A DNA stretch of 64,000 nt, from positions 4,096,001 through 4,160,000 of the forward strand of contig OY969695.1 in NCBI GenBank assembly GCA_963701965.1, given 5' to 3'. The translations under genes were made by a program, and so were the position numbers. Shown here in pieces: positions 17,237 through 26,256 of the stretch (within the stretch, counting starts at the first letter, position 1; each line of letters opens with the position of its first letter). The DNA comes from an uncultured Gemmatimonadales bacterium (GTDB taxonomy: Bacteria > Gemmatimonadota > Gemmatimonadetes > Gemmatimonadales > Gemmatimonadaceae). A model generated the notes under the pieces. It made no database searches and was not told where the DNA came from. It saw nothing but the letters and a program-made list of their open reading frames with translations.

Positions 17237-19638
17237 TGGGTCACCGTGCCCGGCGCCGGCAGCGCGACCGCCCGCCGCGGAGCGGGTTGCCGCGCCGCCG
17301 GCGGCTCCGGCGCCGGACGCAAGGCCACGTGCAACACCTCGTCCATCGACTTGACCGTGTGAAACGTCGCCGCGGCCCGCACTTCCGCCGGCAACTCCTC
17401 GATCTCGCGCGCATTGCCGTGGGGCACGATCAGGTGGCGGACGCCGGCGCGGTGGGCGGCGACGGATTTCTCCTTGAGGCCGCCAATGGGCAGCACGCGG
17501 CCGCGCAACGTGATCTCGCCGGTCATGGCGAGATCGCCGCGCACGGGGCGGCGGGTGAGCGCACTCACGATCGCGGTCGCGATGGCGATGCCGGCGCTGG
17601 GGCCGTCCTTGGGCGTGGCGCCCGCGGGAATGTGAACGTGGATGTCCCGGGTCCGATAGAAGTCACGGTCGAGACCCAGTTCCCGGGCGCGGCGCCGCGC
17701 ATAGCTCAACGCCGCCGACGCCGACTCCTTCATGACGTCCCCAAGGGTGCCGGTGAGCTGCAGCTTGCCGCGTCCCCGCACGACGGTGACCTCGATATCG
17801 AGCGTCTCGCCGCCCACCGACGTATAGGCGAGCCCCCGGGCGACACCCACGACGTCCTCGAAGGAGAGATCGTCCGGATCGAAAGGCGCGGGGCCCAACA
17901 GCGCTTTCAGCTCGGTGCCGCGCACCGTGACGGGCGCGGTCGAATGGGTCTCGGCGCGGCGCCGGGCCAGCTTGCGCGCCACGCGCGCGATGCGCCGGTC
18001 GAGGTCGCGCACGCCGGCTTCGCGCGTGTATCCGCGCAGAATGCCCGGCAGCGCATCGGGTTCCCACGTCACGGCGTCGGCCGGCAGGCCGTTGCGCGAC
18101 AGCTGGCGCGGCACGAGGAACTGACGCGCGATGGCCAGCTTCTCGTGGTCCAGATACCCGGAGAGGCGCAACACTTCCATCCGATCGCGCAGCGGCTCGG
18201 GAATGGTGGCCAGCGAGTTCGCGGTCGTGATGAACAACACCTGCGACAGATCGTAGTCGAGCTCGAGGTAGTGATCGTTGAAGGCGCGGTTCTGCTCGGG
18301 ATCGAGCACCTCGAGCAGCGCCGCCGCCGGATCTCCGCGATAGTCGGCCCCGAGCTTGTCGATCTCGTCGAGCAGGATGACGGGGTTCACGACTTCGGCG
18401 CGTTTCATGGCCTGCAGGATCCGCCCGGGGAGCGCGCCAATGTACGTGCGCCGGTGACCGCGAATCTCGGCCTCGTCGCGCACGCCGCCCAGCGACATCC
18501 GGACGAATTTCCGGCCCAATGCCCGGGCGACGGACTGGCCCAGCAATGTCTTGCCAACGCCGGGAGGTCCGACGAGACAGAGAATGGGACCGTCCAGTCG
18601 TCCGACGAGCGCCAACACGGCGATGTAGTCCAGAATGCGGTCCTTGACGTCGTCGAGACCGTAGTGATCCACATCGAGCACCGCCCGGGCGTGCTCGACG
18701 TCGAGCACATCGTCCGTGCGCGCCGTCCACGGGAGCGCCATGAGCCAGTCGAGGTAGTTGCGCCCCACGGTCGACTCGGGCGACATCGGCGCCGTGCGCC
18801 GCAGCTTCCGGAGCTCGCGCCGCGCGCGCGCCGCCACCGGCTCGGGCAATCCGCGGCGCGTGATCTCGGTGTCGAGCTCGGCGAGATCGTCGCCTTCCTC
18901 TTGTCCGAGCTCACGGTTGATGGCCCGGAGCTGCTCCTGCAGGTAGAACTCGCGCTGGTTCTGGAACAGCGAGCCGCGGACGTCGTCGTCGATCTTCCGC
19001 TCCAGGCGCAGCAGCTCGATCTCGGCGCCGAGGACGCGAATCAACGCGGCCCACAGATCCCCGACGGCCGGGATCTCGAGGAGCGCTTGTTTGGCGTCGT
19101 GCCGCAGGATGAGGTGCGCCGCGATCGCCATCGCGCGCCGCTCGTCGGAGTCGATGGCCTGGACCAGCGCGACGACTTCGTCCGGAATGCGGCAATGCAG
19201 CGAGACGTACTCCTCGAAGCGCCCCATGGCTTGCCGGCTCTCGGCCTCCGGCGTGACGCCGATCAGCGGGGCCGGGGCGACAATGGCGCGCAGCAAACGC
19301 GCGGTCGGCATGTAGCGCGTCACGCGGGCGCGGGCGATGCCCTCGACGAGGACCTTGGCCGTGCCGCTGGGCAGGCGCGCGAACTGGAGAATGCGCGCGA
19401 CGATGCCGACCCGATAGAGGTCCGCCGCCGTGGGATCCTGGATCTCGCCGTTCTCCTGCGCGACCAGCAGGACGAAGTGATCCTTGGCCACCGCCGCTTC
19501 GACCGCCGCCAACGAGGCGGGCCGGCCGACCAGCAGCGGGATCACCACATGGGGAAAGACGACGACTTCACGCAACGGGAGTACGGGAAGCCGATCCTCG
19601 GTTGTGACGGGCTCGCCGTCACGCGCGAAGGTGGGAAC
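17233..19638 (-). CDS. lon: ATP-dependent protease La (Lon), copy 1
   Basis: LPVLPLRE N-domain, [37 protein letters not shown] and GGLKEK catalytic dyad. Start uncertain: in-frame GTT at 19638 after an AAGGAGG SD; first canonical start is TTG 19575. Confidence 0.95.
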
Positions 19639-20894
19639 TACGCCTCCTTCTTCTGCCGCTTGGGTGCGATCTCCAGCAGCGGCGGTGCAGCGTTGGTCAC
19701 CGTGGACTCGATGACCTTGACCTCGACGACGTCATCGCGACTCGGCAGGTCGAACATGATCTCGGTCAGCATCTCCTCGAGGATCGCCCGCAAGCCCCGG
19801 GCGCCGGTGCCGCGCTTGAGCGCTTTGTTGGCGATCGCCTTGAGCGCGCTCTCCTCGAACGTGAGCTTGACCTCCTCGAGGTCGAACAGCTTGGCGTACT
19901 GTTTCGTGAGCGCGTTCTTCGGCTCTTTCAGAATGCGGACGAGGGACTCTTCGTCGAGGGCTTCGAGCGGCACCGACACGGGGAGCCGGCCGACGAGCTC
20001 GGGGATGAGTCCGTACCGCAGGAGATCGTCGGGCTCGACGTCGGCGAACGGATTCTTGATCACGCGCTTGGCGTGAAGACCCAACGCGTCTTCCTTCGCG
20101 AATCCGATCTGCTTCCGGCCCGTGCGGGCCTCGATGATCTTCTCCAACCCGTCGAACGCGCCACCGCAGATAAACAGGATGTCCTTGGTGTTGATCTGGA
20201 TGTATTCCTGTTGCGGATGCTTCCGGCCGCCCTGCGGCGGGACGGAGGCCACGGTGCCTTCGAGGATCTTGAGGAGCGCCTGCTGCACGCCTTCGCCGGA
20301 GACGTCCCGCGTGATGCTGGGGTTCTCCGATTTGCGGGCGATCTTGTCGATCTCGTCAATGTAAACGATTCCGCGCTCACACTCGGCGACGTTGAAGTCG
20401 CCGGCCTGCAGCAACCGCACGAGAATGTTCTCGACGTCTTCACCGACGTACCCGGCCTCGGTGAGCGTCGTGGCGTCGGCGATCGTGAACGGCACATCCA
20501 GTATGCGGGCCAACGTCTGCGCCAGCAGGGTCTTCCCCACGCCGGTCGGCCCGATCAACAGGATGTTGGACTTGTCCAGCTCGACCTCGTCATCGCGCAA
20601 CGAGGCGGAATTGATGCGCTTATAGTGATTGTAGACGGCAACGGCCAGCGCTTTCTTCGCCCGCTCCTGCCCGATCACATATTGGTCCAGAACGTCCTTT
20701 ATTTCCTGGGGCGACGGGACCTGGGTGATCGCCTCCGCGACTTCGCGCTCCTCGTCCTCGGCGAGAATCTCGTTGCAGAGCGCAATGCACTCGTTGCAAA
20801 TGTAGACGGACGGTCCGGAAATGAACTTCCGCACCGAATCCTTGGACTTTCCGCAGAACGAGCAACGGAGGTGTTTGTCGTGGGACATGGGCAT
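19638..20894 (-). CDS. clpX: ATP-dependent Clp protease ATP-binding subunit ClpX
   Basis: CSFCGK...CNEC zinc finger, [35 protein letters not shown] loop. Confidence 0.98.
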
Positions 20895-20992
20895 CCAATG
20901 GAGGCTGCCGAGAACTAACAGCCGTGCCGGAACGGGTCAAGCAGAGCGCAACCTGGCGTTTTCCTATAATAACAGTGCGGCGCCCGCGGCTA

Positions 20993-21008
20993 TGTGAATC
21001 CCTTCACA
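20993..21008. promoter_or_regulatory. CRP/FNR-family palindrome TGTGA-N6-TCACA upstream of clpX
   Basis: TGTGA atccct TCACA. A minus-strand extended -10 (TGnTATTAT, 20974-20966) places the site centre at about -41.5. Confidence 0.65.
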
Positions 21009-21034
21009 AACACCGTGTGCGCCGCATCACGTAA

Positions 21035-21306
21035 AGCTCCGCGTCGCGGAGCTCAGTTCAACCGACTGCGACTAGCGGGTGCGTTTTTCAGCACCCTGCT
21101 AGAGCTCCGCGTCGCGGAGCTCAGTTCAACCGAGTGCGACTAGCGGGTGCGTTTTTCAGCACCCTGCTAGAGCTCCGCCCAGCGGAGCTCAGTTCAACCG
21201 AGTGCGACTAGCGGGTGCGTTTTTCAGCACCCTGCTAGAGCTCCGCCCAGCGGAGCTCAGTTCAACCGACTGCGACTAGCGGGTGCGTTTTTCAGCACCC
21301 TGCTAG
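21035..21306. repeat. Tandem array of four 68-bp multi-hairpin units
   Basis: Units at 21035-21102, 21103-21170, 21171-21238, 21239-21306: AGCTCCGC(GTC/CCA)GCGGAGCTCAGTTCAACCGA(C/G)TGCGACTAGCGGGTGCGTTTTTCAGCACCCTGCTAG. Confidence 0.97.
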
Positions 21307-21314
21307 TGGCTAAG

Positions 21315-21944
21315 TCATGCTGTGACGGTGGGTTGTTTCGACGTTTCGACGACTTCGCCGCGTTGCGCGACGATATTGTCGATCAGTCCGTACGACTTGG
21401 CTTCCTCGGCGGACATGTGGTAGTCGCGCACGATGTCCCGCTCGATCTGCTCGACCGGACGGCCCGTGTGCTTCGACATGAGATCGTTCATCTTGGAGCG
21501 AAGGTACAGGATCTCCCGCGCCTGGATCTCGATATCGGCCGCCGTGCCCTGCGCGCCGCCCGAAGGCTGGTGGATCATGATGCGCGAGTGCGGCAGCGCC
21601 GAGCGGCGGCCCTTGCGGCCCGCTGCCAGCAGGAAGGCGCCCATGCTGGCCGCGATGCCCATGCACGTGGTATTCACCGGACTCCGGAGATACTGCATCG
21701 TATCGTAGATCGCGAGCCCGGCCGAGACGCTCCCGCCAGGGGAATTGATGTACAGATAGATGTCGCGGTCCGGATTGTCCGCGTCCAGAAACAGCAGCTG
21801 CGCGATGATGATGTTCGCGACGTCGTCGTTGATCGGCGTCCCGAGGAAAACAATGCGGTCCATGAGGAGCCGCGAGAAGATGTCGTACGTGCGCTCGCCG
21901 CGGCTGGACCGCTCAATGACGTACGGAGGATAGATCGTTGCCAT
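21315..21944 (-). CDS. clpP: ATP-dependent Clp protease proteolytic subunit
   Basis: [39 protein letters not shown] at 21944 ([11 protein letters not shown]). Confidence 0.97.
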
Positions 21945-22025
21945 ACTGGCCTCGGTTGGACTAGGCAATGCTGTGTGTAAATCTACGTGCCGGGTCAGGT
22001 GCTCTTGCTCCCAGGTGCTCACGCC

Positions 22026-25413: not shown

Positions 25414-26256
25414 ATGACGATTGCTGTCGTACTCAAGGTTGGCGACGGGCTGATACTCGGTGCTGACAGCGCGGTGACTCTTACTGGCAGCAAGGGAGTA
25501 ACGAACGGCTACTTCAACGCTGAAAAGATCTTCCGTCTTGGGCGAGACTTAAGGGTCGGGGGCGTGACGTACGGCCTCGGTCAACTTGGCGGGCGGTCCA
25601 TCACGAGCTTGGCGAAGGATCTTAAGGCTCTGATGTCCGCGAACGAGCAGCCCTGGAGTGCATCGCCGACCACGTACACGATTGAGGAAATCGCCACCAA
25701 GCTTCGCCGCTTCTACTACGAGGACCGCTATCGAGCGGAGTACGCGCCAAGGTCGCTCGATACGGGCAAGTACCCCGGCCTGGGATTTTTCATCGGAGGC
25801 TATTCAGCGAATGCCGAACATCCGGAGGTTTGGCGGGTCGAGGTTGACGAGAACGGTAACTGCGACGCACCTGTCCGGGTTATCGATAGTGACAAAGTCG
25901 GTGCCCTGTGGGCCGGTCAGCCGGAAGCGCTGAACAGACTGATGAATGGGTATTCGGGTGCGGTTCTCGAGGGGCTCGTCCAATCGGGCGCGCCGCTGGA
26001 TGAAGCGTTTAAGTTTCTAAGGTCTCTGCCCGTGACCCACCTTTCAGCCGCTGCGATGCCGATACAAGATGCGATCGACCTCGTCAAATACATGGTCGAG
26101 GTGACGGCCGGTTTTGTTAGGTTTGCGCCCGGACCTAAGACCGTGCATCCTCCTACGGACGTAGCGGCCATCACGCGACACGAGGGGTTCTGTTGGGTGC
26201 AGCGCAAGCATTATTTCAACCGCGAACTCAACCCGAGCTTTGGAACTCAATGGTGA
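25414..26256 (+). CDS. Proteasome-beta/Ntn-hydrolase-like hypothetical protein (island gene)
   Basis: N-terminus (M)TIAVVLKVGDGLILGADS...NAEKIF gives Thr1, Asp17 and a KI-motif Lys. More A/T-ending codons than its neighbours. Confidence 0.7.
   Translation: MTIAVVLKVGDGLILGADSAVTLTGSKGVTNGYFNAEKIFRLGRDLRVGGVTYGLGQLGGRSITSLAKDLKALMSANEQPWSASPTTYTIEEIATKLRRFYYEDRYRAEYAPRSLDTGKYPGLGFFIGGYSANAEHPEVWRVEVDENGNCDAPVRVIDSDKVGALWAGQPEALNRLMNGYSGAVLEGLVQSGAPLDEAFKFLRSLPVTHLSAAAMPIQDAIDLVKYMVEVTAGFVRFAPGPKTVHPPTDVAAITRHEGFCWVQRKHYFNRELNPSFGTQW

Follow-up and report, generated by a model that had tools for sequence, protein, structure and literature searches.

The tandem repeat between clpP and clpX in the window (the whole 64,000-nt stretch of DNA analysed here, from genome G000 of an uncultured Gemmatimonadales bacterium) is an array of a REP/RPE-like element with a target-mirroring arm, which comes from one Gemmatimonadaceae genus and is previously undescribed. 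A search of the PMC open set and of bioRxiv turned up no description of the element family or of flank-mirroring arms. The element measures about 60-70 bp and is built, in order, of a 9-bp hairpin (P1), a near-invariant 12-nt core, 9-10 variable arm bases, an inner hairpin, usually a one-base bulge, and the bases that pair with the arm. How gene-less mini-elements of the REP, RPE, and SDR kind enter new sites is a long-standing question, and this family makes the insertion step testable through the readable footprint that it leaves: an arm that mirrors the flank, orthologous sites with and without the element, one site occupied in both orientations, and a fixed core that hints at the place where an enzyme would bind.

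The array and the dispersed family

The repeat at 21035-21306 comprises four head-to-tail units of 68 bp without indels (TRF: period 68, 4.0 copies, 97% matches, score 488). This arrangement, as well as the differences between units, had been described in the initial annotation and was borne out by TRF and by the unit alignment: the loop of hairpin A reads GTC, GTC, CCA, and CCA, and one further base reads C, G, G, and C. The crossed pattern had been taken to imply recombination or conversion; conversion is not needed, as one point change together with two duplications of unit length, each in a different register, would suffice. Hairpins A and B fold as described (z about -5 for a single unit as DNA), and hairpin B of unit 4 reaches past 21306 into the flank; the stem of hairpin A, which is P1, proved to be 9 bp long and not as delimited, its outer pair using the G that precedes the former unit start, where unit 1 has an A. 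A small central stem does fold with 4 bp in units 1 and 4, but it is not kept across the family, and its bases are those of the conserved unpaired core. The array is intergenic and separated from clpX by about 140 nt. It is unlikely to be an artefact of the assembly, since the unit differences are staggered, the genome holds ten more arrays, and one orthologous site carries a single copy in congener G001 (L274) and two in congener G003 (L287). No public sequencing run with this strain was found (best share 0.11), and four read sets mapped to the array contained clpP/clpX of other organisms, with almost no cover of the array itself. An Rfam family and a CRISPR were rejected as candidates (best Rfam score 23 bits against a cut-off of 64; the units abut, with no spacers). 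An exact 11-nt core without P1 also occurs just before the clpP start (21952-21962, minus strand); it is one of 20 bare cores in the genome and probably a chance match.

Table 1. Features of the clpP-clpX region, in window positions.
Feature	Position	Strand	Remarks
clpX	19638..20894	-	
Likely clpX promoter, outside the element	20966..21008	-	Box TGTGA-N6-TCACA at 20993-21008; extended -10-like hexamer at 20966-20974
Tandem array of four element units, period 68	21034..21306	+	The plus strand has the family's GNA loops and is antisense to clpP-clpX
P1 hairpin (9-bp stem, 3-nt loop)	21034..21054	+	Also 21102-21122, 21170-21190, 21238-21258; outer pair broken in unit 1
Conserved unpaired core (D-G-T-Y-C-A-A-C-C-G-A-C)	21055..21066	+	Also 21123-21134, 21191-21202, 21259-21270
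Arm of unit 4	21271..21279	+	Complementary at 7/9 to flank 21303-21311; identical arms at 21067-21075, 21135-21143, 21203-21211
Inner hairpin of unit 4, subfamily type	21280..21302	+	8-nt loop
19-nt string matching an IS5-family terminal repeat plus CTAG	21288..21306	+	18/19; also at 21084, 21152, 21220
3' flank pairing with the arm	21303..21311	+	Host-derived: 6/9 partner positions identical to the empty G005 site
clpP	21315..21944	-	Stop codon 8 nt from the array

Relatives of the unit were first found by BLAST and an iterated profile and then by a genome scan for the hairpin plus core, which counted 83 units at 54 loci (two of them doubtful), with about 7 diverged units besides. The unit is therefore not unique to this site, and the proposal of a non-autonomous, dispersed REP/MITE-like element, as opposed to a one-off duplication, held. 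Single units occupy 43 loci, double units 5, four units 4, and seven units 2; the periods are 62-69, and all 11 clusters run head-to-tail. Most of these tandem arrays have no CTAG junctions, and the repeated insertion at its own CTAG that had been invoked for the array is unneeded. At least 7 of the 9 stem pairs stood beside 69 of the 91 exact cores with scorable upstream sequence; because the search requires an intact core, copies with overwritten cores are under-counted, and only a few hairpin-only relics were found.

Among 73 non-redundant units from G000 and its relatives, P1 covaries at five pairs (including pair 3, GC 34/TA 27; pair 5, TA 45/CG 16; and pair 7, GC 55/CG 14). The P1 loop is GCA, GAA, GGA, or GTA in 61 of these units, core positions 2, 3, and 5-11 are conserved in at least 71, and the core tetranucleotide is GTCC in 55 and GTTC in 17. 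In single-stranded DNA, loops of the form C-GNA-G are highly stable, an indication that one DNA strand folds. The triplet immediately left of P1 took 19 different forms at 46 loci (CTA in 9), and no consistent target duplication could be defined; at about 15 loci with an IS5-type end in the inner hairpin, the right flank is CTAG in 11/15.

The hairpin-plus-core pattern was present in all five congeners and in 1 of 25 other relatives, in that one without the hairpin. A scan of all genomes gave 37 matches, of which the 19 beyond Gemmatimonad records have 2-7 P1 pairs and, on inspection, no long second hairpin, and a metagenome scan gave 62 matches, including 18 loci with at least 6 P1 pairs (14 syntenic with G000 and 4 judged to be chance). 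In both scans, intact copies elsewhere occurred only in Gemmatimonadaceae/Gemmatimonadales records or in contigs syntenic with G000. Viral contigs yielded four pattern matches, none with a P1 of at least six pairs, plasmids and phages gave no match to the element, and the copies showed no replichore strand bias.

Several further features of the genome were recorded. Thirty-eight of the 54 loci lie at 2.2-4.2 Mb of G000, that is, in 39% of the chromosome, an interval picked after viewing the data. Gene-strand bias and GC skew converge, oddly, near 0.25 Mb, close to an rRNA operon, which may reflect a rearrangement or an assembly join. One copy directly follows the 3' end of a 23S rRNA, and one diverged copy, with an arm that matches the tRNA end, abuts the 3' end of a tRNA-Arg (L041:2741-2822; L214:1120-1190). 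Near G000 3301100-3301230 (L213), a short tandem repeat, of about 14 bases, continues into an inner hairpin of the family type that is degenerate.

The arm and the host flank

When the arm of each copy was compared with its own 3' partner at 47 of the 54 loci (7 atypical ones were left out), 347 of 470 positions paired, against 158±12 after shuffling, and none of 20000 shuffles reached this count. The excess was also seen within subfamilies at the outer five arm positions (74/110 versus 32 and 65/125 versus 48). The same comparison was made with orthologous sites that lack the element: of 28 sites tried, 5 had no usable orthologue, 3 were dropped for low identity, and 20 were scored. The arm paired with the empty-site sequence at 105 of 180 positions versus 49±7, and at 51 of 100 outer positions versus 25 (0 of 20000 shuffles), figures that are to be read with orthologues only about 74% identical, two automatic alignments that look mis-registered, and some circularity added by aligning on the copy's own flank. 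The partner itself was identical to the empty site at 121 of 180 positions, compared with 74% downstream. At 13 of the 54 loci, the stop codon of a convergent gene lies within the arm's partner, on the 3' side of the long hairpin, and the last four codons of gene 3855787 are unchanged in three congeners that lack the element, the arm matching these codons at 8 of 10 positions. The convergent stop codons, the shared end codons, and the pairing with empty sites show that the partner is host DNA.

Individual sites gave a similar picture. One orthologous site is filled in opposite orientations (L008, L018, and L181 versus L134), with different inner hairpins, and each arm matches its own 3' flank. 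In L022, the arm repeats 21 nt of coding sequence in inverted form, apart from one mismatch and an insertion of 3 nt; the codons concerned are conserved in the orthologue of G000, which is empty, and a pre-existing guide could not have supplied such a match. Pairing of the arm fades toward the core and stops there, and P1 is not extended outward (14, 10, 13 and 5, 2, 3 of 46, as raw counts, a shuffle comparison being uninformative at invariant core positions). Mismatches between arm and flank were G.T in 21 cases versus A.C in 4 (p 0.0009 against parity and 0.004 against 4:3), compared with 6 versus 7 in P1; later selection on folding could be a source of this excess.

The extent of mirroring differed among subfamilies. 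The GATC subfamily has an arm that largely retains the consensus of the family. In a three-hairpin subfamily (e.g., L009, L012, L013, L149, L171, L278, L281, and the copy at G000 340761), the partner of the arm is carried inside the element, so that there is no mirroring of the target by this arm and the element has no fixed 3' end. Within the array of the window, only the flank of unit 4 is complementary to the arm, which was thus set before the array grew. A copy without an inner hairpin was also seen (L056:5691-5735, G000 4780691), in which the arm abuts its complementary flank to form a loopless palindrome.

The clpP-clpX spacer is free of the element in all three congeners in which clpP was found, and many of the relatives' copies lie at sites that are empty in G000. 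About 15 loci fall within open frames, as called with our own crude gene caller, among them those of pyruvate kinase, Lhr, Ada/AlkA, an SNF2 helicase, a coupling protein, a glutamine amidotransferase, a deacetylase, and others. Pyruvate kinase is 21 aa longer with the element and exactly 21 aa shorter in five of five congeners, gene 4060733 is 20-22 aa shorter in five of five, and the insert is absent from the alignable orthologues of Lhr, DUF58, and one more gene. The Ada/AlkA orthologues (44-46% identity) were too distant for the junction to be placed, and two more genes had only distant paralogues. A copy in a DUF4015 gene was rejected as a mid-gene insertion, as it lies in a C-terminal overlap instead. 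Judging from the open frames, the element is predicted to lengthen pyruvate kinase and other enzymes by peptides of 20-46 residues. Sense orientation was seen in 15 of 16 intragenic copies; the target words are symmetric, and stop-free frames explain only part of the bias (133/144 versus 106/144). Because no such bias exists between co-directional genes (9 sense versus 14 antisense copies), the intragenic bias can be read as selection on translation. The coupling protein gene, of VirD4/TraG type, contains two in-frame units and is followed by a TraF-like peptidase frame (L209:1503-3612); this region, at 2.40 Mb, is a conjugative element remnant, and inspection of the nearby ORFs revealed no relaxase.

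Insertion and its alternatives

On balance, we lean toward a mechanism in which the folded element is mobile as a single strand, the arm pairs with the target at insertion, the arm is recopied by fold-back synthesis, and a predicted enzyme recognises P1 and the core. The element would move as one folded DNA strand, with P1 and the core as the predicted enzyme site, which resembles the hairpin-plus-nick-region of HUH substrates. The inherited inner part of the arm would capture the target by pairing, with G.T tolerated, so that CTAG-type arms would insert at CTAG and GATC-type arms at GAGATC-like sites, and the outer part would be replaced by copying from the new flank through fold-back synthesis. 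In line with capture at CTAG, this word is the flank at 11 of 15 loci of the IS5-end type, although it is depleted in the genome (1914 versus 4204 expected). Inner hairpins would have been handed down from earlier flanks, an IS5 end among them, and arrays would arise from later slippage between short look-alike ends. More tentatively, the element may be a selfish DNA of 60 bp with a self-rewriting guide: hairpin plus core would be a fixed handle for an enzyme, and the arm would pair with a target and then be overwritten by the complement of the new flank, so that every daughter copy would bear a guide acquired at its latest landing site while the inner hairpins record earlier sites. If mirroring is part of insertion, the family would be a natural example of targeting by a long DNA guide, one that is altered with every jump. 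To our knowledge, such targeting is so far known only from engineered IS608.

Against this mechanism stands the fact that a cognate enzyme was not found among the families searched in six genus genomes. The search covered Y1_Tnp, Y2_Tnp, TrwC, RVT_1, GIY-YIG, IS110, and DUF772. Y1_Tnp (RAYT/TnpA), Y2_Tnp, and TrwC were absent from all six genomes, which are 67-95% complete, and 12 Y1 loci and 13 Y2 loci of other genera had no hairpin plus core. Reverse transcriptase (RVT_1) occurred only in G000, where it is of group II type and lies in an island, GIY-YIG domains were only UvrC-like, and IS110 loci lacked the motif. No recurring nuclease neighbour was detected, either by Pfam on 52 of the 93 proteins recorded in the surroundings of copies across 20 regions or by all-against-all comparison of neighbours, which returned common families only. 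The core fits the attC inverse-core pattern; an attC site was rejected on inspection, with no partner site following the core. The island itself, at 218-254 kb of G000 (L203, L205, L218, L219, L235), contains IS110 genes, an IS5 fragment, and two reverse transcriptases of group II type, has reversed GC skew, and is foreign DNA or contamination.

Mirroring could also have been acquired after insertion, and both readings could give the same end state, template switching being able to perfect inverted repeats once the element is in place. In this alternative, the main one, which we regard as possible though less likely, an ordinary REP/RPE-like element inserts at end-like sites, and template switching by the host polymerase (quasi-palindrome correction) later copies the flank into the arm. 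As described in the available text of two reports, template switching evens out differences between the arms in imperfect inverted repeats (PMC8604942, PMC3820800). It would explain the multi-base, copy-specific changes and the 21-nt copy of L022 with no special enzyme, and none was found. However, nearly all two-hairpin copies match their flank, young copies and those in coding sequence among them; the match is of fixed length and stops at the core, whereas the equally strong P1 hairpin is never extended; and decay of a perfect copy predicts parity of G.T and A.C, which was not what the mismatches showed. If mirroring does come later, the family would be a good natural assay of template switching.

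Selection of guides alone, in which arms mutate, each variant inserts only at complementary host sites, and nothing is recopied, is improbable. Members of the GATC subfamily have one arm in common and resemble each other in their flanks, and the G.T excess fits pairing. A precedent exists in IS200/IS605 elements, of which IS608, according to the available text of PMC5934647, recognises its target by DNA-DNA pairing beside a hairpin and can be steered to 12-17-nt sites by a complementary extension of 8-13 nt in engineered form. The natural guide of IS608, however, is 4 nt long and fixed, whereas the arm is 9-10 nt long and copy-specific, and the element has no coding capacity and no TnpA was found. 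Selection of guides is further opposed by about 15 near-identical IS5-end-type copies, each with a different outer arm, by the match of L022 to 21 nt of conserved coding sequence, and by the lack of a Y1 transposase in all six genus genomes.

On the basis of the end of hairpin B, it had been proposed that the unit originated as a MITE derived from IS5/IS1182 and multiplied by inserting again and again at its own CTAG; this reading is largely refuted and very improbable. The likeness of the end is real: 18 of 19 bases, CTAG included, match IS5-family elements and a MITE in other genera of the family, namely a 181-bp MITE in G006 and, in both G006 and G008, intact 1.4-kb elements (NF033581) flanked by CTAG (L250:524-704, L243, L240), and CTAG borders 11 of 15 loci of the IS5-end type. 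In the known elements and the MITE, however, a transposase or spacer is enclosed by two terminal repeats, and P1 and core are absent, whereas the unit has one such end only, in one subfamily (about 15 of 54 loci), and its left end is P1, which is not terminal-repeat-like; the other loci, about 39 of 54, lack the string yet share P1 and the core. In G000, the string occurs only inside family copies (10/10), and no element with these ends is present. A cognate transposase with the same end was likewise not encountered, DUF772 being found in one of six genus genomes as a fragment without these ends. We infer that the ancestor of the subfamily may have landed beside an IS5-type end and kept it as its inner hairpin.

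Comparison with other known systems revealed partial likenesses. Intragenic and tandem REP-like repeats are already known (PMC3733652, PMC10969869, PMC3116915, available text). REP, BIME, and REPIN sequences resemble the element, as far as the available text of PMC3733652 and PMC3116915 goes, in being short dispersed palindromes that lie mostly just past stop codons and form tandem clusters, with some in-frame genic copies and strand-specific hairpins. REP families carry a GTAG/CGTC tag, whereas the element has none at the hairpin foot and a 12-nt core 3' of the hairpin instead; a REPIN unit is an inverted doublet, in contrast to the head-to-tail clusters (11/11); REP occurs with RAYT, for which the element's genus scored 0/6; and the same text of these two sources does not describe for REP an arm that mirrors the host flank, and that of PMC3733652 makes no mention of Gemmatimonas. 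The palindromic elements of Rickettsia (RPE), in the available text of PMC10969869, likewise consist of an in-frame palindromic repeat in unrelated housekeeping genes, with a recurring peptide and no identified mover; they are about 150 bp long and belong to another phylum, whereas the element is 60-69 bp long with a core and a flank-matched arm. In the IS91 family (IS801, IS1294, and IS1294b; PMC13181058, available text), a palindrome stands beside GTTC or GTCC and there is no target duplication. Both tetranucleotides occur in the element core, but at every filled site compared with an empty one they are internal and never the junction as in IS91, the Y2 transposase of that family is absent from the element's genus (0/6), and the four-base likeness is weak. 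MIRU of mycobacteria are mobile or tandem repeats of very small size close to the ends of genes, as reportedly are the small dispersed repeats (SDR) of Nostocaceae, which are said to have no identified mover; both differ from the element in phylum and size.

Operon context

The array lies within a minus-strand cluster of tig-clpP-clpX-lon-engB, and it had been suggested to uncouple clpX from tig-clpP transcription. A scan of 20850-21400 returned no terminator-like and no sigma-70 promoter-like sites, which lends no support to such uncoupling. Between the array and clpX, a palindromic TGTGA-N6-TCACA box is invariant in G000, G001, G003, and G005; it stands 21 nt before the -10-like hexamer on the clpX strand, has its centre about 41 nt ahead of a likely start, and sits within a longer inverted repeat that is conserved. 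The box presumably corresponds to a CRP/FNR-type consensus with class II spacing, and the region suggests an internal CRP/FNR-type promoter for clpX. The TATAAT that had been noted as a plus-strand promoter is present at 20965-20970, but it is the reverse face of the likely minus-strand clpX -10, and congeners read TATGAT on the plus strand; with no sigma-70 promoter-like site in the scan, the structured repeat RNA expected from it found no support. Since no terminator was seen and a likely separate clpX promoter lies beyond the array, the effect of the array on the operon is probably small. The array is most likely a tolerated passenger and probably matters little to clpX itself. That the host has selected the array as a structured RNA or terminator, to tune clpX or to protect transcript 3' ends, is the least probable reading of all, for although the whole array folds strongly as RNA on the mRNA strand (z -10.3 versus shuffles) and convergent stop codons recur in the 3' side of the long hairpin, the site is empty in the three congeners, no terminator pattern or Rfam family near cut-off was found, both orientations occur between co-directional genes, and about 15 copies lie in coding sequence. 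Upstream of the tig region, a frame of 280 aa on the plus strand (25414-26256) adjoins a tRNA-like stretch; it has atypical codon use and no NCBIfam match, and it is possibly an acquired gene.
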